Below the pieces are notes generated by a model that was not told the origin of the DNA, searched no databases, and saw only the letters and a program-made list of their open reading frames with translations. From an uncultured Acidobacteriota bacterium (GTDB taxonomy: Bacteria > Acidobacteriota > UBA6911 > RPQK01 > JAPXNP01): DNA of 64,000 nucleotides. Within the stretch, counting starts at the first letter, position 1. Each line of letters starts with the position of its first letter. A program made the translations under genes and the position numbers. The stretch spans positions 1 to 64,000 of the forward strand of contig CAVZRV010000015.1 in the NCBI GenBank assembly GCA_963777605.1, read 5' to 3'. Positions 30,520 through 64,000 of the stretch are shown here, piece by piece.

Positions 30520-30820
30520 ATCATTCAAAGAGTGAAACTGGTGAAGCATCGCCAGATGAGGCGGCGCAGGGTCAATTTCAGACCCGGCGGCAACGCCCCG
30601 GGACTGGGAGCCAAGACGGCAATGCAGCACTGAAAGTGGCGATTCAGTCCCGGTGGCCGGGCTGGTTTCAGAAGAAACCGGAAATCAACAATCCTGGATT
30701 GTAAATAGGTTCCCTTCCGCCGGGCAGGCTGCCCGGCCTGCCATACCAGGCACGGCTGCCTGGATTACTCTCCCTCCAGGAACAGAAACCAGGAACTCAT
30801 CCCAAATGAAGTTTCAGGTC
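30520..30820 (+). repeat. Dispersed intergenic element, copy A (long, about 300 bp)
   Basis: Left end ATCATTCAAAGAGTGAAACT (30520), internal TGCAGCAC (30623), right end CCCAAATGAAGTTTCAGGTC (30801-30820). Confidence 0.75.
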
Positions 30821-31715
30821 AGTGTGCGAGGAGATCGCGAAGGGCGACTTTGAGTTCGGGGAACCGGAACTCGAAGGAAAGCTCGAGTGCCTTCTGGGGG
30901 ATGACTCTCTGCCCTTCCAGCAGGAGCGTTTCGGCCATTTCCCCCATCGCCATCCTCAGGGCAGGCCCGGGTACCGCGAACCAGGCCGGTCGATGGAGGC
31001 ACCTGGCAAGGACCTTGGTGAATTCTTTGTTGGTGACCGGAGTTGGAGCAGTTGCGTTGACAGGCCCCTCGAACCGGTCGTCAAAGAGGGCTTGTTCGGC
31101 CAATCGAACGTGATCCAGCATATGAATCCAGGACATGTACTGGCGGCCGCTTCCCAGCTTCCCGCCCACGCCCAGCCGAAACGGCGGTAACATTTTCTCG
31201 AGGGCTCCTCCATCGAGGGAGAGCACGATGCCGGTACGCAGCAATACGACCCGCGCGCCTGACCGCTTCGCCTCGACTGCCGCGTCTTCCCATTCACGGC
31301 AAATCTCCGGGAGGAAACCGGTCCCGGAGGGAGAGCTTTCGACAAGCTGCTCGTTCCCCCGGTCACCATAAAAGCCGATCGCCGAAGAACTGACGATTAC
31401 GCGGGGAGGTCGAGGAGAGGCCAGAAAAGACTGCACCAGGTTCCGGGTCCCCCGGACGCGACTGTCCCGGATCAACTTCTTTCGTTCATCGGTCCATCGA
31501 CCCGAAGCGATCGGTTCCCCGGCAAGGTGAACGAAGCCGTCCAAACCTGTCAGCGATTCGACGGAGGGCGGTCCGCCAAGGACGTCCCATTCGACAAAGT
31601 CCGTCTCTTTCAACGGCGTCCGGCCGAACACGGTGATCTGGTGCCCCTGGTGCAGCAGGTGATCGGACAAGGCACGGCCGATCAGCCCGGAGCCACCTGA
31701 AATACCGATCTTCAT
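30819..31715 (-). CDS. TIGR01777-family NAD-dependent epimerase-like oxidoreductase
   Basis: ISGGSGLIG, HLAGEPI..RW, SAIGFYG, LRTGIVL, GSGRQYMSWIH. Confidence 0.92.
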   Translation of the reverse strand: MKIGISGGSGLIGRALSDHLLHQGHQITVFGRTPLKETDFVEWDVLGGPPSVESLTGLDGFVHLAGEPIASGRWTDERKKLIRDSRVRGTRNLVQSFLASPRPPRVIVSSSAIGFYGDRGNEQLVESSPSGTGFLPEICREWEDAAVEAKRSGARVVLLRTGIVLSLDGGALEKMLPPFRLGVGGKLGSGRQYMSWIHMLDHVRLAEQALFDDRFEGPVNATAPTPVTNKEFTKVLARCLHRPAWFAVPGPALRMAMGEMAETLLLEGQRVIPQKALELSFEFRFPELKVALRDLLAH

Positions 31716-31870
31716 CAATCCACTCCCGGAAAGTGGGCCACCGGCCCGGACTTCCCGCTGCTGAACATTCAACTTCGGGCAACATCTCAAACGGAGCTAC
31801 GCCAAATCCAAAGGGATTCGTCCGCTTACAGCTAAAGAAGAGACGAAAGGGCAGGGAGTTTCAAAGAAGA

Positions 31871-31944
31871 TGGCTGGGGGACAGGGATTCGAACCCCGAT
31901 AGCGTGGTCCAGAGCCACGTGTGTTGCCATTACACCATCCCCCA
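31871..31944 (-). tRNA. tRNA-Gln (CTG)
   Basis: TGGGGGATGGTGTAATGGCAACAC..., anticodon arm CGTGG-CTCTGGA-CCACG, GGTTCGAATCC T-loop, encoded CCA. Confidence 0.96.
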
Positions 31945-32011
31945 CCAAATCGGGAAGGCTGCATTATAGCAGAATCTTAACGCACTGCCGCCGAGGTCAA
32001 ACGACCGGAAA

Positions 32012-32434
32012 TCAACGGGTCGGCATGTCCGCGACCTGGAGTCGAGCCACCGCCGACTCCCACATCTGGAGAGCCCGCCGATAGTGGTCCTCTTCCCCCT
32101 TTGCCCGCAAAAGCGCCTCGGCCTTCAGCTTCTCTTCCTGGGCCCGATTGACGTCAATCTCGCCCGGTCGTTCGGCAACCTCGGCCAGGATCGACACCTG
32201 GCCCGGAAGAACCTCAGCAAAACCCCAGCCGCAGTAGAACCGCTCTCGAGAGGCTCCTTTTCGGTAGGTGATCACGCCGATTTTGAGCTCGGTCAACAAC
32301 GCGGCATGCCCAGGCAGGACACCAAGATAGCCGTTCAGGCCAGGAATTGAGACCTCATCCACTTCGCCGTCAAAGATCTGGCGCGATGGGGTGACGATCT
32401 CCAGGTTCAGTTTCTCGGGCAACTTTTCCGCCAT
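32012..32434 (-). CDS. atpC: ATP synthase F1 epsilon subunit
   Basis: LEIVTP, GYLGVLPGHA, GFAEV; last gene of the operon. Confidence 0.95.
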   Translation of the reverse strand: MAEKLPEKLNLEIVTPSRQIFDGEVDEVSIPGLNGYLGVLPGHAALLTELKIGVITYRKGASRERFYCGWGFAEVLPGQVSILAEVAERPGEIDVNRAQEEKLKAEALLRAKGEEDHYRRALQMWESAVARLQVADMPTR

Positions 32435-32435
32435 C

Positions 32436-34736
<2,301 letters not shown>

Positions 34737-34754
34737 AACTGCATCTCCGCCGGC

Positions 34755-36287
34755 CTAGGAAGCCGCTGCAACTGCACGCTTTTCGGCATAGCGTTCCTTG
34801 AATTCCTTGAGCGCCTCGTTCAGCTTCTGTCGAATCTCGTCGGTGAACTGATGTTTCTCTCGGATCTCCTGGACCAGCCCGGCATGAGCCGATTCCATGT
34901 ACTCGTAGAGCTCGCCCTCGAAGACGCGGATCTCGGACACGTCGAGGTCGTCGAGATATCCCTCGGTTCCGGCGAAAATCGCGATGATCTGTCGTTCCAC
35001 CTCAAGGGGCTGATATTGGGGCTGCTTGAGTAACTCAGTCAGCCTGGCACCCCGAGCCAGCTGCCGCTGGGTGGCTTTGTCCAGATCGGAACCGAACTGC
35101 GCGAACGCCGCCAATTCGCGATACTGGGCCAATTCCAGCCTGAGCCGGCCCGCCACCTGTTTCATGGCCTTCACCTGGGCCGAACCTCCGACCCGGCTTA
35201 CTGAGTAACCGACGTTGATGGCAGGACGAATGCCGGAGTGAAAGAGATCGGTTTCAAGAAAGATCTGACCGTCCGTGATCGAAATGACGTTGGTCGGGAT
35301 GTAGGCGGAAATGTCTCCCGCCTGAGTTTCAATAATGGGAAGCGCCGTCAGGCTCCCGCCGCCCTTTTCGTCATTCAGCTTGGCCGCTCTTTCGAGAAGC
35401 CGGCTGTGCAGGTAGAAGACATCCCCCGGATAAGCCTCGCGCCCTGGCGGACGCCTCAGGAGCAGCGAGATCTCGCGGTACGCCGCTGCATGCTTGGAAA
35501 GATCGTCGTAAATGATCAGAGCATGCTGCCCGTTGTCGCGGAAATACTCACCAATGGCACACCCCGCATAGGGAGCCAGATACTGCATGGTCGCCGGGTC
35601 GGACGAAGCCGCCGATACCACAACGCAGCGATCCATGACGCCGTATTCCTCGAACGTCTTGACCACACGGGCGACGGTCGAGCGCTTCTGGCCGATTGCC
35701 ACGTAGATGCAGTAAACGTCGGTGTTCTTCTGGTTGATGATGGTATCAATGGCAATGGCACTCTTGCCGGTCTGCCGATCGCCGATAATCAACTCTCGCT
35801 GACCGCGTCCAATCGGGATCATCGAATCGACTGCCTTCAGCCCGGTCTGCAAGGGCTCTCGAACCGGCTGGCGGTCAACGACACCCGGAGCCAGCCGCTC
35901 GACCGAATAGTACTCTTCGGCCGCGATAGGTCCTTTTTCGTCCTGGGGTTTTCCGAGCGAATCCACCACTCGGCCAAGCAGCGCGGGTCCCACAGGAACC
36001 TGCATGATCCGCTTGGTCCTCTTAACCAGATCCCCTTCGCAGACTAAGTATATCTCTCCGAAAAGAACCGCTCCCACACTGTCTTCTTCCAGGTTCAGCG
36101 CCAAACCGTAAACGTTGTGAGGGAACTCGAGCAGCTCCAGTGCCATGGCCTTGTCCAGGCCATGGACACGGGCAACGCCGTCACCGGCCGAGATGACGGT
36201 TCCGACTTCGCTTACGACCAGCTCGCTCTTGTAGTCCTTGATCTGCTGCCTGATTATTTCACTGATTTCGTCTGCCTTAATCGCCAT
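34755..36287 (-). CDS. atpA: ATP synthase F1 alpha subunit
   Basis: [29 protein letters not shown]. Confidence 0.98.
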
Positions 36288-36314
36288 CGTTAAGCCTCTG
36301 CTCTCAGTAATCGT

Positions 36315-36851
36315 TTAGTAGGACAGCTCCTGCCGCAGCTGCTCCAGTTCAGTTCGAATCGAACCGTCGAAAACGGTAGAACCCATCTGCAATTTGAGTC
36401 CTCCGATCAATTCGCCATCTTGCTGATACTCGAGCCGAATTTCTTTGCCTGTCACGGCGGACAATGTGTCCATGAGCCGGGCTCGAATCTTTTCGGAAAG
36501 CCCAACCGCGGAAACAACGTCGACCCGAACCACTCCGGCGGAATCATCCATAATCTGTTGGTAAGCCTCGACGACCTCTCCCAATTGCCTCATGCGGCTG
36601 CGCTCAGTCAACAGCAGCAGAACGTTTACAACGATCGGAGTCAGGCTGAGCCGCGAAGAGACCTCCCTGACTACATTCTGCTTCAGCTGGAGGGGAAATG
36701 CCGGGTTGGCCAATGCCTGGAGCAACTCCGCGGATTTTGCGAGCGTCGTGGAGAACTTCTCCAGATCGCTACCCGCGGAACGAGCCACGCCCATCTCCTC
36801 GGCGACATCCGCAAGTGCTCGCGCGTATTTGACAGAAGTTGACGAGATCAT
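36315..36851 (-). CDS. atpH: ATP synthase delta subunit
   Basis: KYARAL, LIGGL...VFDGSIR; operon position. Confidence 0.92.
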   Translation of the reverse strand: MISSTSVKYARALADVAEEMGVARSAGSDLEKFSTTLAKSAELLQALANPAFPLQLKQNVVREVSSRLSLTPIVVNVLLLLTERSRMRQLGEVVEAYQQIMDDSAGVVRVDVVSAVGLSEKIRARLMDTLSAVTGKEIRLEYQQDGELIGGLKLQMGSTVFDGSIRTELEQLRQELSY

Positions 36852-37435
36852 CAGGATGGTTTCCTTTCGCTGTCAGTTCGGAGTTTCTCGAAGAAATTCT
36901 CGATGATCCGATCGTGGGAATCAGCGTCAAGCTGACGCCTGACCTGCTCCTCGGCCAACTTCACAGCCAGGTCTGCCGCGTAGGATCGCAACTCCTGGCG
37001 GGCAACTTTGCTCAGCCCTTCGATCTCCCGGCCGGCCGCCGCCAGGATCTTCTCCGCTTCCTGCTCGGCCATTCTCAGTATCCGGTTCTTTTCGGCTTCG
37101 GTATCGGCCCGCGCCTGTTTCCGAATCGACTCGATTTCTCCGTCAAGGTCCTTGAGACGAGCCTCGGCTTCGGCCAACTTGCGCTGGGCTTCCTCCCGAG
37201 CCTGGCGGGCGGCGTCCATTTCCCGCTTGATTTCGTCGCGGCGGGATCTGAAAAACCGGGCAATCGGCACACGGGTGAAATACACAATCGTGCCGAAAAG
37301 AACAAAAAGATTGAACCAGCGCCCCAGCGTTTGAACCCATCCCCAACCCTCGGGACCAGCCTCGGCAGCCAGGGCGGAGATTGGGATCACACAGGCCAGC
37401 GCCAACATCAGCAGAACGGTTATTGTTCGTCTCAC
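36851..37435 (-). CDS. atpF: ATP synthase F0 b subunit
   Basis: TM segment then Ala/Glu-rich coiled coil; LAVKLAEE. Confidence 0.88.
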   Translation of the reverse strand: MRRTITVLLMLALACVIPISALAAEAGPEGWGWVQTLGRWFNLFVLFGTIVYFTRVPIARFFRSRRDEIKREMDAARQAREEAQRKLAEAEARLKDLDGEIESIRKQARADTEAEKNRILRMAEQEAEKILAAAGREIEGLSKVARQELRSYAADLAVKLAEEQVRRQLDADSHDRIIENFFEKLRTDSERKPS

Positions 37436-37501
37436 CAGATCTTCCCGTTGTTCGGCAGTGGATGAACCCTTGGCCTCATCGAGCCACGGAATCGTTTCCA
37501 G

Positions 37502-37924
37502 TTAGGACTTTTTCAGGACTCGGGAAGCGATCATTCGGGCCACTTCTTCTGCAGTCGGTCCCAGTTCCTTCCTGACCGCCTCTACTTCGGCTTCAAGGTT
37601 GAGCCGAGCCTTCTTTAGTCGGGCTTCGGTCTCGTCGCGTGCCTGAGTCACTCGTTCCTGTCGGGCGGCAAGCGCCTCCTTGCGGATCTGCTCCGCCACT
37701 TGATATGCCTCCTGTCGGGCCTCTCTCGTCTTCGCGTCACAACTGGCTTCGAGAGCATCCCGCTGTTCGAGCGTACGCTCGGCACCAGCCAGCGTCCCAA
37801 CGCTCAAAACCTTGCGTTCGTCGAGTACGCGGAGGAGCGGTCGAAACAGCAACGAATTCAGGGCCCAAAGAGTTGCGAGGAAGATGAGCGAGGAAGCCAG
37901 CAGAGTCCAGTCGAGCGTCAGCAT
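37502..37924 (-). CDS. ATP synthase F0 b' subunit
   Basis: LDWTL...LNSLLFRPLLRVLDER then coiled coil. Confidence 0.85.
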   Translation of the reverse strand: MLTLDWTLLASSLIFLATLWALNSLLFRPLLRVLDERKVLSVGTLAGAERTLEQRDALEASCDAKTREARQEAYQVAEQIRKEALAARQERVTQARDETEARLKKARLNLEAEVEAVRKELGPTAEEVARMIASRVLKKS

Positions 37925-38099
37925 AAGAAGACTGAATTACTAGCAGATTTCCTCCAAGAGATCAAGAATTCGAGTTACCCTGGGGCAGCTATCAGGGTTC
38001 GAAATCCTCCGCACCCGGGCTGTGCTAAACTACGTTTTCTCATGTCCCGCAAGGGGTCGCCGGTCACGGCGTACTCCCGATAGAGAGGAATTTGGAAGC

Positions 38100-38567
38100 A
38101 TGGCAAAATCGGACAAGGCAACTGAGGTTGAGAACACGACTCCAACAGTGACCGAAAAGGTCCCTCTCGTTCCGTTCAAAGTTGTGGCGTCGGGAATTCC
38201 CTTCTTCTCGGACAAAGAATGCACGCAGCAGGTTCCGGACGCATCCATCGTCATCCTGCAGACGCTGGACCCGTCTGACGAAATCCAGGAACTTGACATC
38301 GTCCCGAGTACCAAGACATACCAGGTCGGCGACTACGTGACCCTCGCATTCGATAACAAGAAGATCTGGGAAGACTGCTACTACCGGGATCCGGAGAGCG
38401 GAGAAATCGCGAGAGCCTTTCGCATTCACGTAAATTTCATCGGTGAGCGGCTTTCCAGCCAGGCTGTCGAAGAGGACCGCGCCCGAATCACCGATCTGGA
38501 AAAGGGCGTGCAGGCCAAGATCGAAGAACTCGCACAACGCAGCGCCGGCAGCCCCCCGGTGAACTGA
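38100..38567 (+). CDS. Hypothetical protein
   Basis: Globular-looking ORF with GAGG RBS, divergent from the atp operon. Confidence 0.7.
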   Translation: MAKSDKATEVENTTPTVTEKVPLVPFKVVASGIPFFSDKECTQQVPDASIVILQTLDPSDEIQELDIVPSTKTYQVGDYVTLAFDNKKIWEDCYYRDPESGEIARAFRIHVNFIGERLSSQAVEEDRARITDLEKGVQAKIEELAQRSAGSPPVN

Positions 38568-38636
38568 TCCAGGGAAAACTGAACTGGGACGTCACTTCCA
38601 AGAGCGCTCATGCAGCGCGAAGTGACCAGGCGCCGG

Positions 38637-38770
38637 ATCATGCAGAGAATGAAACCTGGCTCAAATTGACCCTCTCTGCGTGCAGCACCAACCTCTTGAA
38701 CGCACCCCTCGCCAGGAACTTAACCCGTCCAGTTTTTCCAAGTCTTCGTTTATCCAACTGAGATTTCAGA
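38637..38770 (+). repeat. Dispersed intergenic element, copy C (diverged, about 134 bp)
   Basis: Left ATCATGCAGAGAATGAAAC, internal CTCTGCGTGCAGCAC, right ATCCAACTGAGATTTCAGA. Confidence 0.55.
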
Positions 38771-40022
38771 TTACCGTGTCCGAGGGAATCTGAGCGTTTT
38801 TCGGGATGATGACGATACCGTCTCGGACGTAATAGTTCTCGCCGTCGTAGTTCTTGAGTTGGCGTTTATTGACGATGCGGACGTTCGCCCCGATCCGGGC
38901 ATTCTTGTCGATAATGGCTCCATCGACAACACATCCGGAACCGATCCCGACCGCCGGGTTCCCCTGCGGTTCGTCTTCGTAGAAGTCCGCTCCCAGCATC
39001 AACGTCCGGCTCAACTCGACGTTCTCGCGAATCACGCTGCGGATGCCGATCACCGACTCCGTAATCCGGGAACCGAAGATCTCACAACCCTCAGAAATAA
39101 TTGTCCGACTCAGGAGACAGTTCTGTACGTGGCTCGCAGGAAGAAACCGGGGGTGCGAGTAAATCGGTGCGTCCGCCGAGTAGAAGCTGAACTTGGGATT
39201 GTCGGCAGTCAGGTCCAGATTGGCCCGATAGAAGGCATCGATGGTTCCGATGTCTTCCCAGTAACCATCGAAAACATAACCGTAGACATTGTACTTCGGC
39301 AGGGAGGACGGAATGATGTCCTTTCCGAAATCCATCTTCGGATCCTCGTCCAGCACCCTCACCAGGGCTTCAGTATTGAAAAGGTAGATCCCCATGGACG
39401 CCATCAGGCTGCGCTCCTCGGTCACGCCACGGTGCTTCCAGGATTCGACATCGATCTTGAGCGAATCCACCAGCTCGGGATCCTGAGGCTTTTCGCAGAA
39501 CCTCGTGATCCGCCCTGAGGTCTCCATCTTGAGGATGCCGAGTTCAGAGGACTGGCTGGCCGTAACCGGCAGGACACAAAGGCTGACGTCGGCACCGGTT
39601 TTCAGGTGGTCCTCGAGCAGTTTCCGGTAATCCATTCGATAAAGGTGATCACCCGAAAGGATCAGGATGTGCTTGGGCCGGTAGGTCAGGATGTGGCGCA
39701 GAGATTGCCGCACCGCATCAGCCGTCCCCTGGTACCACATGACACTCTCGGGAGTCTGTTCGGCCGCGAGGATGTCCACGAACCCCTGAGAGAACATGCC
39801 GAAGCGATACGTCTGGGTAATGTGCCGGTTGAGCGATTCTGAATTGTACTGAGTGAGAACGAAAATCCGGTTAATCTCCGAGTTGATGCAGTTGCTGATG
39901 GGGATATCCACCAACCGGTATTTCCCCCCCAGCGGCACCGCAGGCTTGGACCTGATCAGCGTAAGAGGAAACAATCGACTGCCTTTGCCGCCGCCCAATA
40001 CGATCCCAATGATCTCTTTCAC
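38766..40022 (-). CDS. glgC: Glucose-1-phosphate adenylyltransferase
   Basis: LGGGKGSRLFPLT..RSKPAVPLGGKYRL, WYQGTADAV, GYWEDIGT, MLGADFYE. Confidence 0.96.
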   Translation of the reverse strand: MKEIIGIVLGGGKGSRLFPLTLIRSKPAVPLGGKYRLVDIPISNCINSEINRIFVLTQYNSESLNRHITQTYRFGMFSQGFVDILAAEQTPESVMWYQGTADAVRQSLRHILTYRPKHILILSGDHLYRMDYRKLLEDHLKTGADVSLCVLPVTASQSSELGILKMETSGRITRFCEKPQDPELVDSLKIDVESWKHRGVTEERSLMASMGIYLFNTEALVRVLDEDPKMDFGKDIIPSSLPKYNVYGYVFDGYWEDIGTIDAFYRANLDLTADNPKFSFYSADAPIYSHPRFLPASHVQNCLLSRTIISEGCEIFGSRITESVIGIRSVIRENVELSRTLMLGADFYEDEPQGNPAVGIGSGCVVDGAIIDKNARIGANVRIVNKRQLKNYDGENYYVRDGIVIIPKNAQIPSDTVI

Positions 40023-45821: not shown

Positions 45822-46505
45822 ATGAGCCAGGACGAGAGCCGCACCAAACTTCTTTACACCGAATTTGTCACCCACGACGTCAAATCATTCATTGTCGAAC
45901 GACCTTCAGACTACTCGTTCGAACCAGGACAGGCTGCTGAACTGGCTATCGACTCGCCTGAATGGGCGGAGGAGAAGCGTCCCTTCACCTTCACATCAGA
46001 CGCACACGCACCGGCCCTTCAGTTCATTCTCAAGGGTTACCCCCAGCACCAGGGTGTAACCCAGGCACTGCACGAACTGGAACCGGGGGCGGAGTTGCTG
46101 CTCGGTCCCTCCTGGGGGACCATCACCTACCGGGGACCGGGCGTGTTCATTGCCGGTGGCGCCGGGGTCACACCGTTCATCGCCATCCTCAGAGACCTGC
46201 ACCGTCGCAATGATATTGCAGGCAATGCCCTGTTCTTTTCCAACAAGACCGCGGCAGACATCATCTTGGAGCAGGAGTTCCAGTGGATATTTCGGAAGAG
46301 CCCGGACCAACTGGTTTTCACCCTCACCCGCGATAAGAGGGCAGGCTGCACCGAGGGCCGAATCGACCGCGATTTCATTGCCGACCGGGTTAACGACTTC
46401 TCGCGGCCATTCTATGTGTGCGGTCCGCCCGAGTTCGTGGAATCGATCAAGGATGACCTCAGATCGCTCGGAGCTTCCGCGGACAGCCTGGTCTTCGAGG
46501 AGTGA
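45822..46505 (+). CDS. FAD/NAD(P)-binding ferredoxin-reductase-like oxidoreductase
   Basis: RPFTFTS, FIAGGAGVTPF, YVCGPP, C-terminal FE. Confidence 0.92.
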   Translation: MSQDESRTKLLYTEFVTHDVKSFIVERPSDYSFEPGQAAELAIDSPEWAEEKRPFTFTSDAHAPALQFILKGYPQHQGVTQALHELEPGAELLLGPSWGTITYRGPGVFIAGGAGVTPFIAILRDLHRRNDIAGNALFFSNKTAADIILEQEFQWIFRKSPDQLVFTLTRDKRAGCTEGRIDRDFIADRVNDFSRPFYVCGPPEFVESIKDDLRSLGASADSLVFEE

Positions 46506-46524: not shown

Positions 46525-46660
46525 GACCTGAAACTTCATTTGGGAGACTTCGAGTTGGAACGCCAAGTCGCCAACCAAGGGCTCTTGGGTTGAAAACAAA
46601 GAAGATCCTTGCGCCTTTGCGGTTCAATCCAGCCGCAGCAAGTTTCACTCTCTGAATGAT
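46525..46660 (-). repeat. Dispersed intergenic element, copy D (about 136 bp)
   Basis: Minus-strand left end ATCATTCAGAGAGTGAAACT (46660-46641) and right end TCCCAAATGAAGTTTCAGGTC (46545-46525). Confidence 0.75.
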
Positions 46661-46821
46661 TCGCGCCGGCCGCCGGGCTACGGCGATCCGGATTCCACCG
46701 TAAAGAGCCTGTTCCAAGCTGAGTCTTCTCCGGCGATCCGGAGGATTCTGTCAGAATTCCGTTGAGCAGAAATGTAGTATTTTTCGCCACAGACCCCACA
46801 CAAGGAAGCAAAGGACTGGAG

Positions 46822-47059
46822 ATGGACAGAACGCGCCGTCGACCGCATTCACGACCGGGCGCAGGATCTTGCCGGTGAACTCGACAGCGCCATCCAGCGA
46901 CTCGATGCCCTGCGAAGTTCGACCAAACTCATGCTCGACAAGCAATACCAGGCCAACATCGCTGCAATGAGCCGATTTTCCGAAAGCCTTGATAAGACGC
47001 TCGACTACATGCAGTCCAGGCTCAACCTTGAGTCTGAAGCCGTTAACGACATGAGCTGA
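46822..47059 (+). CDS. Small amphipathic helical protein, apparently frameshifted just after ATG
   Basis: Frame 46829-47059 reads ERAVDRIHDRAQDLAGELDSAIQRLDALRSSTKLMLDKQYQ...; ATG 46822 with AAGGA RBS is one base out of frame. Confidence 0.45.
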
Positions 47060-47110
47060 TCTTCATCCAGCTGAATACACTCGACAGGCCAAGTAAGAAC
47101 CTCAAGAAAG

Positions 47111-47132
47111 TGGCCGGCCTCAAGGCCGGCCA
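47111..47132. terminator. Hairpin between convergent ORFs
   Basis: TGGCCGGCC-TCAA-GGCCGGCCA. Confidence 0.5.
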
Positions 47133-55011: not shown

Positions 55012-55157
55012 CGGAACCTTTCGGTTCGCGCACTCCAAATGAATCCTGCAGCCATGCCGGACTCGAGAGGAAACCCGCGGCGGTAGGCATCCTCGGATTT
55101 GGGCAGGCCAAAATGCTCTAACGAACCGGTGCAAAAGTGCTGTGTTAGGATGACCAC

Positions 55158-55382
55158 ATGAGCGATCGCGTCATCATTTACGGAAAACCTGGTTGACCCC
55201 ACACCGAGGCCGCCCGTGAGGAACTTGGCCGACAACACCCTGCCGTCGAGTACGTGGACGTCAAGCGCGACCCGGAAGGGTTGGAGCGCATGTTGCGGGA
55301 GAACGGCGGCATCCGAAAAGTGCCGACGATCCTGCTGGACGGGAATGTGAAGATCGGGTACGGGGGGACCTGAGGAGTCTGA
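55158..55382 (+). CDS. Glutaredoxin-like selenoprotein with two Sec (UXX-star type)
   Basis: MSDRVIIYGKPG-U-PHT...RKVPTI...KIGYGGT-U-GV-stop; in-frame TGA at 55194 and 55371; terminal TGATAA. Confidence 0.85.
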
Positions 55383-55387
55383 TAACC

Positions 55388-55404
55388 GCCGGCGGTCGGC
55401 CGGC
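55388..55404 (+). promoter_or_regulatory. Putative bacterial SECIS hairpin for the second UGA
   Basis: GCCGGC-GGTCG-GCCGGC starting 14 nt after TGA 55371-55373; G-containing apical loop. Confidence 0.55.
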
Positions 55405-55447
55405 AGAATCGTGCGACTCGAATTGATCTTCGCCTGCTTTTCCGCTT

Positions 55448-56743: not shown

Positions 56744-56833
56744 CTAGTCTGCCCATCTGATGCCCGACCCGACGGCGGGTCACCGGTGTGCAGACGGGTA
56801 TATCATCAAGGAATAAATGAAAGGAAGGCGGAA

Positions 56834-57190
56834 TTGCAGTTGAAGGACTCGGGGCGGCTCCTCGGATTACTCGGGCTGGCGAGAAGAGCCGGGAAACTCA
56901 CGCTTGGAACTTTAGCCACCCGGCAGGCGATCCGATCCCGGAAAGTCTGCCTCCTGCTAATGGCGCAGGATCTCTCAGAATCGTCCGCGACCAAGGCGAG
57001 TCAACTCGCCCGAGCCATGAAGATTCCGGTCTTCAGGCCCTGTACCAAAGCTGATTTGAGCGGGGCGCTCGGTCGTGAAAACCTGGGTGTCGTCGGTGTC
57101 ACCGATCCCAATCTCGCCGAATCGATCATGGGAATCATCGACCCGGCTGGGGCACCCAAGGGTCTTCAGCCGGGCGATCAGGAGTCCTGA
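56834..57190 (+). CDS. L7Ae/YlxQ-family RNA-binding protein
   Basis: LLGLARRAGKL..G, A.D.S, TKADLSGALGR..GVVGVTD..LA. Confidence 0.85.
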   Translation: MQLKDSGRLLGLLGLARRAGKLTLGTLATRQAIRSRKVCLLLMAQDLSESSATKASQLARAMKIPVFRPCTKADLSGALGRENLGVVGVTDPNLAESIMGIIDPAGAPKGLQPGDQES

Positions 57191-57423
57191 CAGATGCGTT
57201 CCCGAGCCACGGTAACGGACCCGTTCTCGCGCAGCAACTTCCCCTTATCAAAGAGAAACGCCAGCAGGTCGTCGAGAGTCAGGTTCGACAACGAACAAGT
57301 GTGAAACCGGGGGGAGTCACCGAAGTGAACCCGGGAGAGCTCGCGAATCTGCGCCTCGGAAACTGGATCTGCTGAAGCGCCGATCAGGCGGAGAAGTTCA
57401 TGACCGTGAAAAGACTGGTACAT
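57178..57423 (-). CDS. YecH-family metal-binding protein
   Basis: HGHELL, FG...RFHTCS, L..KGK, C-terminal IC. Confidence 0.85.
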   Translation of the reverse strand: MYQSFHGHELLRLIGASADPVSEAQIRELSRVHFGDSPRFHTCSLSNLTLDDLLAFLFDKGKLLRENGSVTVARERICQDS

Positions 57424-57560
57424 CGTGAAATTCCTTCGGGGTCGCTGAGGCAAAAGAATAACACGCTCAGGCATCGACTGTTCAAAGGTTGGCAAATCTG
57501 ATATCTATCGCCGTGGCAACCCCGGCAGGAGGGGGGCATAGGAGAGGAATCGAACAGACA

Positions 57561-58619
57561 ATGGATCAGAACAATACAGCTTCACCTTCATCAGGTGCGC
57601 GTGACCGCGACGGACTGATCGTCGTTGCGGGTGCCGGAGGCTTTATCGGTGGCGCCCTGACTCGTTACTTTCACGACGCCGGCTGCTCCAGGATTCGGGC
57701 GATCGACAAGAAGCCCCTGCCCAACTGGTGCCAGAGAGTGCCGGGCGTGGAATCCCTCTGCCTCGATCTGAGCCGCGAGCAGAACTGCCGCCAGGCCTGC
57801 GAGGGCGCCCGCGAGGTCTACAACCTCGCCGCAGACATGGGCGGGATGGGATTTATCGAACGGTTTCGGGTGGAGTGCCTGCGGAGTGTCCTGATCAACA
57901 CTCACATGACGGAGGCCGCTTATCGGGCGGGCGTGGAACGCTATTTCTTCTCCTCGTCGGCATGTGCCTACAACGTGGACCTGCAGCGGGATCCCAACGT
58001 GACGGCCTTGAAGGAGTCGGACGCCTATCCCGCGATGGCCGAGAGGGGTTACGGCTGGGAGAAGCTGATTTCTGAAATGTTCTGCCAGGAATACTGGGCC
58101 GAGCGGGGAATGAAGACCTTCATTGCCCGTTTCCACAACGTCTACGGGCCTTGGGGGACCTGGGACGGTGGTCGCGAGAAGGCGCCCGCCGCCATCTGCC
58201 GGAAGGTCATCGAAGCCAGAGACACGGGCAGGCACGAGATTGAGATCTGGGGGGACGGTTATCAAACCCGCAGTTTCATGTACATCGATGACTGTCTGAC
58301 CGGCATCGACAAGATCACCCATTGTGAAGAATTGATTGCGACACCGATCAACCTCGGGTCGAGCGAACTGATCTCGATCAATGACCTGGTCAGCCTGGCC
58401 GAAGAACTCGGTGGCATCCGGCTCAACCGGTCCTACGACATGAATGCCCCCCGGGGGGTCGCCGGTCGGAACAGTGACAATACCTTCATCAAGAAGGTTC
58501 TCAAATGGGAACCTTCGACCCCGATCCGGGAAGGGTTGCAGCCGACTTATCGCTGGATCGATAAACAGTACAACGACCGGAAAGCCGGGAGGCGGGCGGT
58601 TGTGAATGAAGGTCACTGA
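57561..58619 (+). CDS. GDP-mannose 3,5-epimerase-like NAD-dependent epimerase
   Basis: GAGGFIG, NLAADMGGMGFI, SSSAC, YGWEK, RFHNVYGPWGTWDGGREKAPAAICRK. Confidence 0.85.
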   Translation: MDQNNTASPSSGARDRDGLIVVAGAGGFIGGALTRYFHDAGCSRIRAIDKKPLPNWCQRVPGVESLCLDLSREQNCRQACEGAREVYNLAADMGGMGFIERFRVECLRSVLINTHMTEAAYRAGVERYFFSSSACAYNVDLQRDPNVTALKESDAYPAMAERGYGWEKLISEMFCQEYWAERGMKTFIARFHNVYGPWGTWDGGREKAPAAICRKVIEARDTGRHEIEIWGDGYQTRSFMYIDDCLTGIDKITHCEELIATPINLGSSELISINDLVSLAEELGGIRLNRSYDMNAPRGVAGRNSDNTFIKKVLKWEPSTPIREGLQPTYRWIDKQYNDRKAGRRAVVNEGH

Positions 58620-59444
58620 CCTCTCGGAAGAGGCGGGTGAAAGGGATCGTCATGGCATGGAACTTTCCAGCGTAATCGGAGCGATTCCGTATCGAATGGC
58701 GCTGGCGGGCGGCTGGATCGACCAACCGTTCGTCTCTCGGCACAATCCCTCTCCGCCCGGTTCAATGGTGGTCATTTCGTTGGTTCCGAGCGTGCGTTAC
58801 ATGAACCGTTCCGGAATGGCGACCGGCACCCGCAAAGTGGCCGACCGGCTGTGGTCCGGCAGGCTACCTTCGGGTTTCCCTCTCGATTTGACGAGGAACC
58901 TGTACCGGGAAGAGAACCGGAACAAACCGGATCCGTCGGGCTCGCAGGACATGATCGGAATCCTTTTCCCCGGAGTCAGCCGGCTGGACTACGACTATCA
59001 CCATGAAGAGGGGATATTCCCGATCCACATCGAGTCTACCTGCGACCCGGAAATCGCCCGTTGGATCGAAAAGGTCATTCACGTTATTCCGGTCGCCCCC
59101 CGTCCCGACGGATACAACCCGCTCGGTGAGCAAAACCTCGATCCCGCCTGGATCGAAAGGCTCGGGCGGACCGGTAGCCGACTGTTACGAGGCGATTGTA
59201 GCGCGTGACCTGGCCGCCCTGGGACGCTCCATGAATGAGTGCATGGATTGCTGGGAAACGATCCTCCCGCAGACCGTCCACCACCCGCTATTGCAGGCTA
59301 GACCTGGCGAACCTGCTGCGCTGCTACCAGGATCGCTATCCCGGTGCAATGTATTCCGGATGCGGAGGAGGGTATCTCTACGTTGTGGCGGACGAGCCGG
59401 TGCCCGGCTCCTTCCATGTCGAGGTCAGGACCGACCGACTATGA
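58606..59444 (+). CDS. Divergent GHMP-kinase-like protein, two frameshifts (near 59176 and 59297)
   Basis: PYRMALAGGWID, SGMATGT, SGSQD, DLAALGRSMNE, GAMYSGCGGGY across three frames. Confidence 0.7.
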
Positions 59445-60280
59445 AACGGGTGGTTGTTTCCGGCAGCTTCGACAACGTCCAGGCCCGAGACCTTCGCCTG
59501 CTCGAAGAAGCAAGTCAACTCGGTGCGGTAACGGTTCTGCTCTGGTCCGACGAGTCGGTTTCGGCGATCAAGGGCGAGGCGCCCCAGTTTCCGCTCGCGG
59601 AACGGTCTTACCTGATCTCGTCGGTTCGCTACGTCGAGCGCGTGGTCGTGGCCGAAGGACTTTCGTCCGGCGATCAATTGGCTCGATCCGAACAAACCCG
59701 GGCGGATGTCTGGGCCGTCGAAGAAGCGGGTCGGTCGGAAGCCAAAGCGGCCTATTGTCGAGCCAACGGAATCGAATTGCACCCGGTCAGCAGGACCTGC
59801 CTGGAACGATTTCCTTCATCAGAGGCTTACCCAACATTCGCTGGGGCTCTTCCGGAGCGGGCTGTTGGGGACAAACGGGTGCTGGTGACCGGCTGTTTCG
59901 ACTGGCTGCATTCCGGACACGTCCGGTTCTTCGAGGAGGTGTCGCAACTGGGTGACCTCTATGCGGTTGTCGGGCATGATGCCAACATCCGTCATCTGAA
60001 AGGAGACGGCCACCCGTTACTGTGCCAGGACGAACGCCGCTACTCGGTCGGCGCCATTCGATTTGTCACTCGGGCCTTGATTTCATCAGGACGGGGCTGG
60101 ATGGATGCAGAACCGGAGATCGCTTTGATTCATCCTGACATTTACGCGGTCAACGAGGACGGGGACCGCCCCGAGAAAAAGAACTTTTGCAGAAGTCATG
60201 GAATCGAGTACGTGGTTCTGAGCCGAGACCCGAAGCCCGGCCTGCCGGCTCGGTCGAGTACCGATCTTCGGGGATACTGA
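59441..60280 (+). CDS. Tandem cytidylyltransferase-like (HxGH) nucleotidyltransferase
   Basis: Domain 1 SGSFDNVQARD (degenerate); domain 2 TGCFDWLHSGH; C-terminal RSST; ATGA overlap. Confidence 0.85.
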   Translation: MKRVVVSGSFDNVQARDLRLLEEASQLGAVTVLLWSDESVSAIKGEAPQFPLAERSYLISSVRYVERVVVAEGLSSGDQLARSEQTRADVWAVEEAGRSEAKAAYCRANGIELHPVSRTCLERFPSSEAYPTFAGALPERAVGDKRVLVTGCFDWLHSGHVRFFEEVSQLGDLYAVVGHDANIRHLKGDGHPLLCQDERRYSVGAIRFVTRALISSGRGWMDAEPEIALIHPDIYAVNEDGDRPEKKNFCRSHGIEYVVLSRDPKPGLPARSSTDLRGY

Positions 60281-60326
60281 ACCTTAGTACTCCGGTCTGG
60301 ACAGAATGCTGTTGGAGGAGGATGCG

Positions 60327-63071
60327 ATGTCATTTCGGCGCAACGTTTCGTTGGTTTTTTGCTTGATTTTGTTCCTGGCCGGAACTTTGCTGTCAGCCCA
60401 GGATATACCCGAATTGCAGTACCAGGAATTCGTTCTGCCGAACGGTCTCCAGGTGATTCTCCACGAGGACCACTCTATCCCCATCGCGACGGTCAACATC
60501 TGGTACCACGTCGGGTCGAAGAACGAGAAGAAGGGTCGCACCGGGTTCGCCCACCTCTTCGAACACCTGATGTTCGAGGGGTCCGCGAACGTGCCGGAAG
60601 GCAAGTTCGACCAGTGGCTGGAAGCGGCCGGTGGAGACAACAACGGATCGACGACCGAAGATCGGACCAACTACTACGAGAATATTCCAAGCAACGCAGT
60701 GGAGCTGGCTCTTTACCTTGAATCGGACCGAATGGCCAATCTTCTCCAGACCATAGACCAGAAGAAACTCGACACCCAGCGTGACGTGGTCAAGAATGAG
60801 CGCCGGCAGGGAGTAGACAACCAGCCCTACGGAAGAGTCAGCGAGGTGATCCTCTCGGCGCTCTACCCCTCCGATCACCCTTATTCCTGGCCGGTCATCG
60901 GAAGCATGCAGGACCTGTCGGCCGCCTCTCTCGAAGACGTGAAGGACTTCTTTCGAAGTTACTATGCGCCCAACAACGCGAGCCTTTGTGTCGCGGGAGA
61001 CATTGATCCCAAGCAGGTCCGCGAGCTGGTCGAAAAGTACTTTTCCCCGATTCCCCCGGGACCTCCTGTAGAGCGGTTCGAGACCTGGGTCCCCGAACTC
61101 AAGAGTCCACGGGTGATCGAAATGAAGGACAACGTCTCCCTTCCGCGCCTGTACATGGTCTGGCACACCCCACCGATCTACAAATCGGGCGACGCCGAGT
61201 TCGACATCCTCGCCAGCATCCTTACCGACGGGAAGAACTCCCGCCTCTACAAACGCCTCGTCTATGACACCCAGATTGCCCAGGACGTGCGCTCGTTTCA
61301 GGGCTCCAAGGAGATCGCCAGCGACTTCTACATCGTCGCCACGGCGAAACCGGGACAGTCCCTGGACGCCATTCGGGTCATCATCGAAGAGGAACTGGAG
61401 AAGATCCGCAAGAACGGCGTAACCGACCAGGAAGTCCTGACCGCGCTGAATTCCTGGGAGTCTTCTTTCCTCCGGCGTCTGGAATCGGTCGGGGGCTTCC
61501 GGGGCAAAGCCAACCTGCTCAATGAATACAACACATTCACCGGGAGTCCCGGCTTCCTGAAGGAGGACATGGAACGCTACTACTCGCTGACTCCCGCCAG
61601 GATCCAGAAGGCGGTCGATCGCTACCTGCGGGCCGGTGAGAATGTGATGGTCGACGTGGACCCGGCCGGCGACCTGAAGGCCGACGATTCGATCCCGCTC
61701 GATCGCGCCCAAAAACCGGAGAACGGCCCGGCCCCGTCCTTGACCCTTCCCAAACTCCAGGAAGCCCGTCTCTCCAATGGGCTGAAGGTGATGCTGATCG
61801 AACAGCACGAACTTCCGATCGTTCAGCTCAATCTTATGATCAACGGCGGCTGGTCGGCCGATCCCGAACACACGCCCGGAGTCGCCCGGCTCACTTCCGA
61901 CCTGCAGGACGAAGGGACCCGAACCCGCTCGGCACTCGAGATTTCTGATCAGCTCAAGGAAATTGGCGCCGATCTGAGAACCTCGTCCAACTTCGATTTC
62001 AGCGCTGTTTCCCTGAATACCCTGAAAAAGCACATGGACAAGGCCCTGGCGCTCTTCTCGGACGTCCTCACCAACCCGGTCTTCCCGGAAGAGGAACTGC
62101 AGCGCAAGAAGAAAGAATACCTGGCCCGCATTCTCATGGAGCAGAAGCAACCCACCACGGTGGCACTGAAAAGTTTCTTCAGAACTCTCTACGGGCCCGA
62201 CCACCCCTACGGCCAGCCCTACACCGGATCGGGCACCGAGGAGTCCATTGCGGCGATCCAGCGGGACGACCTGGTTCACTACTACGACACCTATTACAGC
62301 CCTGGAAATGCCACACTGATCGCCGTCGGCGACACGTCGCTCTCCGAACTGACTCCGCTTCTCGAGGATGCCCTGAGTAGCTGGAAGGAGGAAACGGTTC
62401 CCGCGCTCGAACTGCCGCCGGTGCATCCGGTTCAGGAAACGCAGGTTTACCTGGTCGACAAGCCGGGTGCTGCCCAGTCAGTCATCGTTGCCGGCCATCT
62501 CGGGATCCCTCACAATTCGAAGGACTACTTCAGCGTCGAAATCCTCAATACGGTTCTTGGCGGCAAGTTCACGAGCCGGCTGAACATGAATCTCCGGGAA
62601 GACAAAGCCTACACCTACGGTGCTTTCTCCCAGTTCGTGTTTCGAAAGGAAGTGGGGCCCTTTTTCGCCTTCACTCAGGTCCATACCGAGGTCACCAAAG
62701 AAAGCCTGTTTGAAATCATGAAAGAGTTCAGAGGGCTCCGGGGCGAAAACCCGGTCACTCCCCAGGAACTGGACTCGACCAAGAACTATGTGGCCCTGCG
62801 ATTTCCGAGCGAATTCGAGACCGTTTCGGAACTGGCCCGAAAGCTGCAAGAACTGGCTGAGTTCAATCTTCCGAACAACTACTACGATTCTTACGTGCCC
62901 AACCTCGAGAAGGTGACTGTCGCAGACGTCACTGAGGCCGCCAGGGAACACATTCATCCGGACCGGATGCTGATCGTGGTCGTCGGTGATATCGGCAAGA
63001 TCGAGCCGGGAATCCGGGAACTGAACTTGGGCCCAGTCCACGTGATCGACGCCCAGGGCAACCCACGGTGA
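60327..63071 (+). CDS. M16 (pitrilysin-family) zinc peptidase, two-module exported protein
   Basis: HLFEHLMF (HxxEH), VVKNERRQ, LREDKAYTYG; signal peptide. Confidence 0.94.
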   Translation: MSFRRNVSLVFCLILFLAGTLLSAQDIPELQYQEFVLPNGLQVILHEDHSIPIATVNIWYHVGSKNEKKGRTGFAHLFEHLMFEGSANVPEGKFDQWLEAAGGDNNGSTTEDRTNYYENIPSNAVELALYLESDRMANLLQTIDQKKLDTQRDVVKNERRQGVDNQPYGRVSEVILSALYPSDHPYSWPVIGSMQDLSAASLEDVKDFFRSYYAPNNASLCVAGDIDPKQVRELVEKYFSPIPPGPPVERFETWVPELKSPRVIEMKDNVSLPRLYMVWHTPPIYKSGDAEFDILASILTDGKNSRLYKRLVYDTQIAQDVRSFQGSKEIASDFYIVATAKPGQSLDAIRVIIEEELEKIRKNGVTDQEVLTALNSWESSFLRRLESVGGFRGKANLLNEYNTFTGSPGFLKEDMERYYSLTPARIQKAVDRYLRAGENVMVDVDPAGDLKADDSIPLDRAQKPENGPAPSLTLPKLQEARLSNGLKVMLIEQHELPIVQLNLMINGGWSADPEHTPGVARLTSDLQDEGTRTRSALEISDQLKEIGADLRTSSNFDFSAVSLNTLKKHMDKALALFSDVLTNPVFPEEELQRKKKEYLARILMEQKQPTTVALKSFFRTLYGPDHPYGQPYTGSGTEESIAAIQRDDLVHYYDTYYSPGNATLIAVGDTSLSELTPLLEDALSSWKEETVPALELPPVHPVQETQVYLVDKPGAAQSVIVAGHLGIPHNSKDYFSVEILNTVLGGKFTSRLNMNLREDKAYTYGAFSQFVFRKEVGPFFAFTQVHTEVTKESLFEIMKEFRGLRGENPVTPQELDSTKNYVALRFPSEFETVSELARKLQELAEFNLPNNYYDSYVPNLEKVTVADVTEAAREHIHPDRMLIVVVGDIGKIEPGIRELNLGPVHVIDAQGNPR

Positions 63072-63325
63072 CACGCACTTACTGGCGCCGCAACTGCTGA
63101 TGTAATAAGACTTTTTCCAGAGGTCTGGCACCGATTAGCGTTGCGGCGCGGGCCGTTTTCCCTGCAAGCGCTAGCCTCACTCAAATTGGTACCAGAGCAA
63201 GAAGAAAATCCTTATTCGTAAGCACTTAGCAACCGTTTTGGTGCGTGTCACCGATTTATGAGGAGTTGAGAGTGCGCAGGGTCACAACGCCGGCGGGGTT
63301 CACTTGATATAAATTCCGGGACGTT

Positions 63326-63826
63326 ATGAAGAACCAGAAAACGACCTGCAGATGCCCGGTATGTGGCCAGTGGTTTACAGGAGATATTCCCCTCGAGCCT
63401 GTCAAGATCTGGAAGAACCTGGTCAAGGATAAACACATAACGATTCTGCAGGCTCGGTGCAGGCGTTGTGGTTCTGTCTTCGAGGTGGGTGTAAAGGCAG
63501 CTGTAACAGGCTTTCAGGGAAGTCCCTACTTGCTCCTTCTGGCAACTGTCACCCTGCTGGCGTCATTGATGGACGGATTTCTGAGCCTTCAACTCTTCCA
63601 GCAGGGCGCAGTAGAGTTGAATCCGCTCCTCGGGTTGATTTTGGCGAAGAGTCCCGTTCACTTCGTCATCACCAAGTATCTGCTGACGAGTTTCGGCGTC
63701 ATTGTTCTGGTGTTGTTGAGTGAACGAAGGGTACTGACCAGGTGGCTCACCGGTCGGCACCTCCTGCTGGCGTCCCAGGTTCTGTTCGCGGGATTGATCG
63801 CCTACCAGTCAATGCTGCTCAGTTGA
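63326..63826 (+). CDS. DUF5658-like membrane protein with N-terminal zinc ribbon
   Basis: CPVC...CRRC, then D..L....GA.ELNPL....F...K TM motif. Confidence 0.7.
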   Translation: MKNQKTTCRCPVCGQWFTGDIPLEPVKIWKNLVKDKHITILQARCRRCGSVFEVGVKAAVTGFQGSPYLLLLATVTLLASLMDGFLSLQLFQQGAVELNPLLGLILAKSPVHFVITKYLLTSFGVIVLVLLSERRVLTRWLTGRHLLLASQVLFAGLIAYQSMLLS

Positions 63827-63891
63827 CGATCCCCGGTCCACTCCCGGTGCCTGCGGAATCCAGGTCAGCCCGGCCCCCGCGCGCTCCGCGC

Positions 63892-64000
63892 ATCATTCAG
63901 AGAGTGAAACTGGGCCAGGCGGACGGCCAACGCGCAGACTCATTTCGAGCTCCGGGCAACCCGCCCCGGGACAATCGTGCTCCCTCTGCATTGCAGCACT
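63892..64000 (+). repeat. Dispersed intergenic element, copy B (cut by the window end)
   Basis: ATCATTCAGAGAGTGAAACTGG...GCGCAG...GGCAAC..GCCCCGGGAC...TGCAGCACT, colinear with copy A. Confidence 0.75.

Follow-up and report, generated by a model that had tools for sequence, protein, structure and literature searches.

Introduction

The REP and BIME repeats, which are linked with RAYT, are extragenic, i.e., placed at gene 3' ends or between convergent genes. They are mosaics of short motifs and hairpins and show no target duplication, and the REP unit is a GC-rich imperfect palindrome of 20-35 nt. BOX elements are composed of boxA, boxB repeats and boxC, and SPRITE elements have hairpin-plus-tail ends. 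Old copies of MITEs can lose their flanking direct repeats. The IS1111 group of IS110 has a subterminal inverted core and makes no target duplication. In a review, MITE families were described as having large size and sequence variation with ends better conserved than the core, and modular (BOX) and terminator-like (SPRITE) repeats were also described (PMC10969869).

The window, i.e., the whole stretch of DNA analysed here, is 64,000 nt from an uncultured Acidobacteriota bacterium. Acidobacteriota are abundant and poorly studied, and no description of their intergenic repeat families was found; a term search of the literature on Acidobacteria intergenic repeats and MITEs gave nothing specific, and four exact 16-17-mers were not found in literature text. 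Four copies of a short element are known from the window, named A (30520), B (63892), C (38637) and D (46660, minus strand). The family looks like a new relative of the REP, BOX and MITE kind. It is best explained, tentatively and with a probability of about 0.45, as a lineage-specific repeat of the REP/BIME/BOX/MITE class in 3' untranslated regions, the two conserved ends (L and R) of which would be recognition sites for an unseen factor. The case for such a family, drawn from four copies in one 64-kb window, is suggestive rather than strong.

Conserved ends and copies

The L block ATCATKCARAGARTGAAAC was found four times in the window with up to three mismatches, against 0.02 expected, and none of 100 shuffles reached four. 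Its sequence ATCATTCARAGAGTGAAAC was matched without mismatch in A, B and D and with two mismatches in C (Table 1). When up to five mismatches were allowed, the additional matches were four with five mismatches, each within an ORF. The R block CCCAAATGAAGTTTCAGGTC was exact in A and D (0 expected), where the identity extends over 21 nt. A third R, in copy C, had mismatches at 6 of 20 positions. L is followed by R on the same strand in all three complete copies. These occurrences far beyond chance and the constant order argue for a repeat family. The first-pass annotation had reported the same four left ends and the same identical and diverged right ends, and both reports were confirmed, the R of C being now placed as in Table 1.

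The blocks measure 19-25 nt (L) and 21-28 nt (R). The modules TCATT and TGAAACT are common to L and R, but permuted and inverted, so the ends are related, yet they are not terminal inverted repeats. The same had been said earlier of the shared TGAAACT/AGTTTCA core, and this description holds, since the inverted core is 7 nt long and subterminal, placed 13 nt inside the left end and 4 nt inside the right end. A search for terminal inverted repeats with gaps allowed found nothing beyond this 7-mer. L contains the dyad TTCA, 5 nt, TGAA; R has the same half-sites with another spacing, and TTCAG is common to L and R in direct orientation.

The unit is built as fixed L, copy-specific hairpin, variable interior and fixed R. 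The hairpin lies directly 3' of L in all four copies and differs in sequence each time. This hairpin and the inverted core support the interpretation as a repeat, whereas the shortness and subterminal position of the core weaken it. Copy C has decayed at both ends, which is expected of an old copy and is in line with the same interpretation. The likeness of A and B starts 14 nt upstream of L, i.e., at 30506, where 36 nt have 86% identity to 63878-63913.

Table 1. Positions of the four copies and their parts in the window (kcal/mol, predicted folding energy).
Feature	Position	Strand	Description
Copy A	30520..30820	+	Long form, 301 nt, complete from L to R
L of A	30520..30538	+	Motif match
Hairpin HP1 of A	30538..30555	+	Copy-specific, directly after L; -8.5 kcal/mol in sense, -5.9 in reverse complement
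Internal hairpin of A	30664..30679	+	Perfect; R core (GTTTCAG), then L core (GAAAC)
R of A	30801..30820	+	Exact match
Hairpin upstream of C	38590..38628		Strong; between upstream stop (38567) and L of C; T-rich tail on minus strand
Copy C	38637..38772	+	Short form, 136 nt, diverged; L 38637-38655 (2 mismatches), R 38753-38772
Copy D	46525..46660	-	Short form, 136 nt; L 46660-46642, R 46544-46525
Hairpin after L in D	46642-46608	-	Followed by T-rich run on the element sense strand
GC hairpin at B	63879-63891		Ends directly at L
Copy B	63892..64000	+	109 nt up to the window end; L 63892-63910; interior colinear with A

Genomic context

All four copies are intergenic, and R overlaps an opposite-strand stop codon or lies at most 19 nt from it in the three copies with R (3/3). 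Both observations favour an intergenic repeat. Copy A is flanked by a PEGA-domain ORF (29856-30500, plus strand) and a TIGR01777/DUF1731 ORF (30819-31790, minus strand), and the last 2 nt of its R lie within the opposite-strand stop codon (30819-30821). The stop codon of glgC (38766-38768) falls inside R of C; the GlgC protein encoded there has 418 aa, equal in length to its three best homologues, and GlgC homologues with 88-92% identity were found. R of D is 19 nt from the stop of an ORF at 45822-46505 (plus strand).

On the L side, a same-strand stop is placed 19, 65 and 69 nt before L in A, B and C, respectively, and the nearest supported same-strand gene end of D is 558 nt away. The earlier claim that each copy directly follows the 3' end of a gene is thus true of A, B and C, but not of D, and the placement is more regular on the R side. 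The position of the copies agrees with that of REP/BIME, which are extragenic and lie 3' of genes or between convergent ones. The copies are not arrayed but lie 8-17 kb from one another, with ATP synthase, glgC and other core genes around them. The strong hairpin upstream of C, with its minus-strand T-rich tail, is a candidate terminator of glgC situated past the whole element, and from its sequence this role is likely.

Interior sequences

The interiors of A and B are colinear for about 110 nt. The score of their local alignment was 32, whereas shuffles averaged 16.5 (z = 6.4) and none of 300 reached 32. The segment TGCAGCAC was found at 30623, 38681 and 63992, i.e., in A, C and B, and copy C also retains CCAGGAAC (38712). 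The interior of D showed no likeness to A, B or C on either strand (p 0.22-0.91). The first description of the interiors, with A and B colinear, TGCAGCAC kept in C and D unrelated, was therefore upheld. Near-identical ends around interiors that range from homologous (A and B) to unrelated (D) argue for a repeat, as do the size-variant, end-conserved MITE families reported in the review (PMC10969869). The perfect ends of D, with an interior that shares nothing with the others, weaken the repeat interpretation.

Lengths of about 300, 134 and 136 bp had been proposed; A has 301 nt, and C and D both have exactly 136 nt between equivalent positions, so that the value of 134 did not stand. Copy A is 165 nt longer than either. 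The gapless identity of C and D is 26/96, which is the chance level. The equal length of C and D, observed in two copies only, hints at a length constraint that is not predicted by selfish decay. Near-invariant ends with saturated interiors indicate selection in place, and an RNA or protein-binding function suits this at least equally well. Both features weaken the case for a repeat.

RNA structure

The copies could also be a cis-acting RNA element or a small-RNA family that is not mobile, with L and R as functional RNA segments, e.g., a seed or hairpin on the 5' side and a second segment on the 3' side. In one variant, a 3'-UTR clamp would be formed by the pairs TGAAACT-AGTTTCA and TCATT-AATGA, with the variable hairpins as spacers. 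This explanation is considered rather unlikely. It would account for the strand-specific hairpin of L, which has 6 bp and reaches -3.8 kcal/mol in sense but -0.2 kcal/mol in the complement (U.G pair), and for ends that are much better conserved than interiors. The U-rich sense-strand run after the hairpin of D is agreeable with it, and so is the location of R at a stop codon, since ribosomes that terminate there would melt R. In the colinear blocks of A and B, the loop sequences ATTTC and GCAAC are retained and the stems differ. Copy A is packed with hairpins and folds at -125.4 kcal/mol (z = -4.3 against shuffles).

However, folding of B, C and D was on a par with shuffles on either strand (z -0.4 to +0.3). 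Copy A alone beats the shuffles, and folding does not support a structured RNA nature of the family. The A-B consensus fold holds one compensatory pair in 21. The R-core change in C breaks the L-R pairing without compensation. The unrelated interior of D also stands against an RNA family. A comparison with Rfam, as proposed in the first-pass annotation, gave no family match for any of the four copies at E<=10 (best E = 0.3-7, far below cut-offs), and at gathering score tRNA-Gln alone was matched in the whole window.

No promoter-like site was found upstream of L in A, C and D by a consensus scan, and the flanks upstream of L are GC-rich and unlike one another. An ECF or sigma-70 promoter at TGAAAC was rejected, as the four copies have no conserved -10 at the correct spacing. 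R itself does not form a terminator. In reverse complement, every copy shows a hairpin of -5 to -13 kcal/mol and then TTTCAYTCTYTG, of which 4 of the first 8 nt are T; the threshold of the terminator consensus scan was 5/8 T, and none of the four copies was listed. A terminator-like end below the scan criterion in four copies also weakens the interpretation as a 3' untranslated repeat. If the copies were functional RNA, they would represent a new 3'-UTR element common to unrelated housekeeping genes, namely glgC, a yfcH-family oxidoreductase gene and a flavin reductase-like gene.

Recombination sites and mobile elements

Transposase, recombinase, integrase and reverse transcriptase families were found neither in the 59 window ORFs compared with Pfam nor in the 19 compared with NCBIfam. 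The earlier statement that the window has no transposase or recombinase holds for these ORFs, the one noteworthy exception being an excisionase-family HTH domain at 1621-2106. At the boundaries of A, C and D, the flanks share no direct repeat that would mark a target-site duplication, and a conserved target flank is likewise absent. The lack of an enzyme match and of these flank features weakens the interpretation as a repeat. Of the mobile cassette or ncRNA family suggested at first, a non-coding multi-copy element with asymmetric conserved ends was retained, which is either a repeat of the mobile or REP kind or an RNA family, but its specifics were not: no target duplication, conserved target or enzyme was found, and only A folds beyond shuffles.

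The exact L 19-mer was also searched in 185,579 species genomes, among which the source genome is absent, and 30 loci were obtained with one match each. By arithmetic, about 35 chance matches are expected, so the search for relatives gave only a chance-level result. The loci belong to unrelated, mostly low-GC taxa; TGCAGCAC was downstream in 0/30 and an R-core-like 7-mer was within 600 nt in 1/30. The sole Acidobacteriota locus (L014) lies within an ORF. Distant blastn of A and D against a plasmid collection gave only matches at E>=1, all of them in unrelated genes, and neither L nor R was matched. Having four known copies, with L at chance level elsewhere, weakens the repeat interpretation.

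L and R may instead be paired DNA sites for a protein, i.e., junctions of an insertion or inversion cassette or binding sites, the interior being a spacer of set length. In the cassette version, the enzyme would be a tyrosine or serine recombinase or of the IS110 type; in the binding version, the sites would organise DNA between convergent genes, e.g., as a topological or roadblock site. This is improbable. It would explain why C and D are of exactly one length with unrelated interiors, and the half-sites of the L dyad, present in R at different spacing, are consistent with it. L and R joined at TTCAG would give 7-nt inverted arms with a 5-nt spacer, a junction that the internal hairpin of A resembles, and a subterminal core combined with a lack of target duplication is reminiscent of the IS1111 group of IS110. 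However, the spacer next to the core is GAGAG in L and GGTCN in R, so L and R do not match as crossover sites. At R, the outer arm is unconserved and differs among the three copies, 7-nt inverted arms are short for known sites, and the window has no recombinase gene. The equal length comes from two copies, and the sequence shared by the interiors of A and B would be needless for a pure spacer.

In a more specific form, likewise improbable, L and R would be the hybrid junctions that arise when small non-coding cassettes, each unit having a set length of 136 nt, are inserted site-specifically. Joining of R to L at TTCAG would rebuild the site, and the internal hairpin of A may be the relic of a junction between two tandem units. 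Such a system would be unlike integrons, i.e., dispersed at stop codons and carrying RNA structure as cargo instead of genes. The long, hairpin-packed copy A with its core-to-core hairpin is like nested or tandem repeats as well and in this respect supports the repeat interpretation.

Several known sites were compared and rejected. The first-pass annotation had likened the ends to integron attC and a string in copy B to a XerC arm, and neither likeness was sustained. The attC consensus is RYYYAAC for R'' and GTTRRRY for R', and the cores GTGAAAC and GTTTCAG have purines and pyrimidines at wrong positions. In addition, the L-R pair has 7 nt without a long bulged hairpin with extrahelical bases, a further complementary pair (TCATT/AATGA) runs across it, and the copies are dispersed among housekeeping genes with no cassette array and no integrase in the window. 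Xer/dif sites have two 11-nt arms around a 6-nt spacer; the XerC-like string was found in the flank of B only, and the flanks of A, C and D differ. In PATE elements derived from IS200/IS605, a conserved target of 4-5 nt precedes the left end, and both ends carry similar hairpins on a single strand. Here, the left flanks end in TGG, CGC, CGG and CGA, and no L-like hairpin is found at R. By eye, none of the consensus features of hammerhead, parS, IHF, Fur, DnaA-box and sigma-54 sites fits.

Protein-coding potential

Six-frame reading gave no consistent open or conserved frame across the copies, which argues for a non-coding repeat. Seven small ORFs within A and D or close to them had no Pfam match, and a 101-aa frame through D had 45 word-sharing candidates and no homologue at E<=10. 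Readthrough via a PETSFG frame after the stop of the neighbouring gene was rejected because this frame, in frame in A and D, is out of frame in C. It is hardly credible that the copies are small protein genes starting at the GTG or ATG within L (AGA-GTG-AAA): the GTG of A, B and D is replaced in C by ATG, also a start codon, A and B read MKL... and end in ...AMQH and ...ALQH in the same frame, and the start codon and R are in one frame in A, C and D, but C stops after 6 codons and A after 33, the frame of D continues into the antisense of the neighbouring gene, the A-B blocks align far better with gaps of 1-2 nt than by codon, and neither a Pfam match nor a homologue of the D frame was obtained.

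Proposed mechanism

As an intergenic repeat, the units would fill the spacers after genes, with R set at the stop codon of the opposite-strand gene. From this arrangement, the units are most likely transcribed as the 3' untranslated region of that gene. Read in this direction, a unit would end in a hairpin followed by the pyrimidine- or U-rich complement of L, i.e., a weak terminator-like end. L and R would be sequence-specific sites of a putative trans-acting factor encoded elsewhere in the genome, and this factor may have copied or inserted the units without making a target duplication. The units may persist because gene-end spacers tolerate them, and perhaps also because they supply 3'-end structure. 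If the units are mobile, their ends would be recognised without inverted termini or target duplication.

Relation to described repeats

The BOX and SPRITE elements of Streptococcus pneumoniae are, like the element here, short, non-coding, multi-copy and intergenic according to the review (PMC10969869). In the same review they are transcribed with neighbouring genes (PMC10969869), as the units here would be. The element resembles BOX in its distinct conserved end modules around a variable middle, and its hairpin-plus-tail ends may be likened to those of SPRITE. However, there is no sequence relation and the phylum is another one. The middle here is unrelated sequence instead of a countable module, and the ends are permuted copies of two modules.

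MITEs such as Correia, ERIC, QMITE1/2 and Chunjie are likewise below 500 bp, without ORF, intergenic and present in size variants, and in the review they also have hairpin-rich transcripts and ends kept better than the core (PMC10969869). With 136-301 nt, the multi-copy, intergenic units without a transposase ORF are within the MITE size range (< ~500 bp). In contrast to MITEs, they have neither terminal inverted repeats, only the 7-nt subterminal core, nor flanking direct repeats. They are GC-rich instead of AT-rich, and one copy has a wholly unrelated core.

The likeness to REP/BIME is found in the extragenic site, either 3' of genes or in the space between convergent ones, in the mosaics of short motifs and hairpins, and in the lack of target duplication. 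Unlike REP, the hairpin of L is short, AT-rich and of 6 bp, and the element lacks a REP doublet. The IS1111 group of IS110 and integron attC share with the element asymmetric ends, a subterminal inverted core, no target duplication and the AAC...GTT geometry, whereas the window here has no recombinase, conserved target flank or array. With two ends that are permutations of one pair of modules, the repeat is placed outside the usual definitions of MITE and REP.

Copies and end blocks

The element is a non-coding intergenic repeat with unlike left (L) and right (R) end blocks. Its copies, A to D, are listed with other features of the window in the table. All family-level statements are based on these four copies, one of which, copy B, is truncated, i.e., 109 nt are visible before the window ends. 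The L block, ATCATKCARAGARTGAAAC, gave four matches in the 64-kb window at three or fewer mismatches, against a mean of 0.02 in shuffles. At five or fewer mismatches, only four poor matches were added, all within ORFs. The R block was identical over 21 nt between A and D, and diverged but still recognizable in C (6/20 mismatches). The left and right ends claimed in the first-pass annotation were thereby confirmed. In all three complete copies (A, C, and D), L was followed by R on the same strand. Similarity continued 14 nt upstream of L between A and B (36 nt at 86%), spanned 37 nt at 84% around L between B and D, and extended R inward by about 8 nt in A and D.

Coordinates of the repeat copies and other features in the window
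Feature	Position	Strand	Description
HTH protein and ATPase genes	1621-3611	+	small excisionase-family HTH protein gene (domain 1621-2106) overlapping a 513-aa AAA_22 ATPase gene
Convergent gap	14605-14660	+	extra TGAAACT 7 nt before a strong hairpin (14619-14658), 10-bp stem
WYL/WCX genes	27202-29129	+	two adjacent genes, one with PafC-type HTH; 1.4 kb upstream of A
Copy A	L 30520; R 30800-30820	+	301 nt
Hairpin in A	30664-30679		perfect; R core then L core
Hairpins in A	30719-30737; 30746-30763	+	adjacent, perfect; GCCGGGCAGGCTGCCCGGC; CCAGGCACGGCTGCCTGG
Hairpin beyond L of C	38590-38628		strong; T-rich tail on minus strand
Copy C	L 38637; R 38753-38772	+	136 nt
Copy D	L 46660; R 46545-46525	-	136 nt
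Gap between D and FG-GAP terminator	46660-47110		about 450 nt, no supported gene
Hairpin after FG-GAP gene	47111-47132		9-bp GC stem, terminator-like on minus strand
Glutaredoxin-like ORF	55158-55373	+	71 codons, in-frame TGA at codon 13
Copy B	L 63892	+	truncated

Interiors and folding

Of the lengths proposed earlier, about 300 and 136 bp held for A and D, and 134 bp for C was corrected to exactly the length of D. The interiors of A and B were homologous (local alignment z = 6.4, reached by 0/300 shuffles). The C and D interiors were unrelated, i.e., ungapped identity of 26/96 against a shuffle mean of 24.3, and the D interior matched none of A, B, or C. The string CTCTGC(A/G)T(T)GCAGCAC is common to B and C (p = 0.02), and CCAGGAACT is present in both A and C.

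Inverted symmetry between the ends was confined to the 7-mer TGAAACT/AGTTTCA, which is subterminal (13 nt inward at the left end, 4 nt at the right). The modules TCATT and TGAAACT occur in both blocks in permuted arrangement, 7 nt apart in L and with adjacent complements in R, and the L-R pairings would cross if both formed. Neither a target duplication nor a conserved flank was found beside the copies.

L folds into a 6-bp hairpin, TCATTC-ARA-GAGTGA, whose loop holds the variable A/G base. The energy was -3.8 kcal/mol on the sense strand versus -0.2 on the complement because of a U.G pair. The hairpin directly 3' of L has a different sequence in each copy (-1.1 to -10.6 kcal/mol, sense strand), and a GC-rich hairpin or stretch precedes each L. 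The two adjacent hairpins of A look like duplicates differing by one compensated pair, G-C to A-T.

The complement strand of each copy ends in a hairpin and TTTCAYTCTYTGMATGAT, resembling other terminator tails of the window, e.g., the minus-strand tails beside the hairpins at 14619-14658 and 38590-38628. The T-runs of these ends fell short of the threshold of the terminator scan. On the minus strand, the convergent gap reads as an ordinary terminator, i.e., hairpin and CAGTTTCAAATTTTC, which shows that the AGTTTCA core is also present in plain terminator tails of the genome. On the plus strand, TCATTC comes after the hairpin that follows the FG-GAP gene and matches the six bases with which the L hairpin begins, perhaps by chance.

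Position and genomic setting

R and the opposite-strand stop codon share 2 nt in A. In C, the glgC stop falls within R, and in D, R is 19 nt away from the opposite-strand stop. GlgC has 418 aa, equal to its three best homologues. On the L side, the claim that every copy sits just after a gene 3' end was true for A, B, and C (same-strand stops 19, 65, and 69 nt away) and failed for D, where the closest end of a supported gene is 558 nt off and five intervening small ORFs (38-64 aa) had no Pfam match. The strong hairpin of C is located past L, so that transcription from glgC would have to run through the whole element to reach it.

The window is core chromosome, with argG, the ATP synthase operon, glgC, a pyruvate kinase fragment, and tRNA-Gln. 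Some GlgC relatives showed 88-92% identity, and the best ones with a name, from "MAG: Acidobacteriota bacterium", 71%. Among 59 window ORFs scanned with Pfam and 19 with NCBIfam, none matched a family of transposases, integrases, or reverse transcriptases, in agreement with the earlier report of no transposase or recombinase. The excisionase-family HTH domain is 28 kb from the nearest copy. The ATPase whose gene it overlaps is similar to the PEP-CTERM system-associated ATPase, with a match (E = 1e-50) that falls short of the curated cut-off, and a staphylococcal-nuclease-like gene follows on the opposite strand. The WYL/WCX genes form a PafBC-like regulator pair. The glutaredoxin-like ORF, where plain ORF lists show a gap, is a candidate selenoprotein. 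It matched Pfam Glutaredoxin (E = 7e-11) with TGA translated as U, and when aligned to PDB chain 3zit_A, this codon falls on the first Cys of CPPC. The hairpin starting 10 nt after the TGA was weak (z = +0.3).

Identity of the repeat

The element is tentatively read, at a probability of about 0.45, as a REP/BOX/MITE-class intergenic repeat that is specific to its lineage and lies in 3' untranslated regions, where an unseen factor would recognize L and R. The chief problem with this reading is that near-invariant ends against saturated interiors, with one length common to two copies, suggest selection in place. These signs keep two other readings alive. An RNA element would account for them, but it is the less probable choice. 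B, C, and D folded no better than shuffles on either strand (A alone beat its own), and Rfam gave no match for any of the four copies at E ≤ 10, which also rejects a catalogued RNA. The element is not clearly a structured RNA. Paired DNA sites or a cassette would fit the same signs and are more doubtful still. A protein-coding reading was rejected, as the copies share no open frame, A-B blocks fit better with 1-2 nt gaps than codon-wise, and the element ORFs had no Pfam match or homologue.

The exact L 19-mer was found at 30 loci in 185,579 species genomes, all single matches at chance level (about 35 expected by our own arithmetic). The attC and Xer likenesses noted in the first-pass annotation, like PATE and classical MITE identities, were rejected on membership criteria. 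Passages of a MITE review (PMC10969869) show precedents for families that vary in size and sequence but conserve their ends better, and for repeats of modular (BOX) and terminator-like (SPRITE) build.
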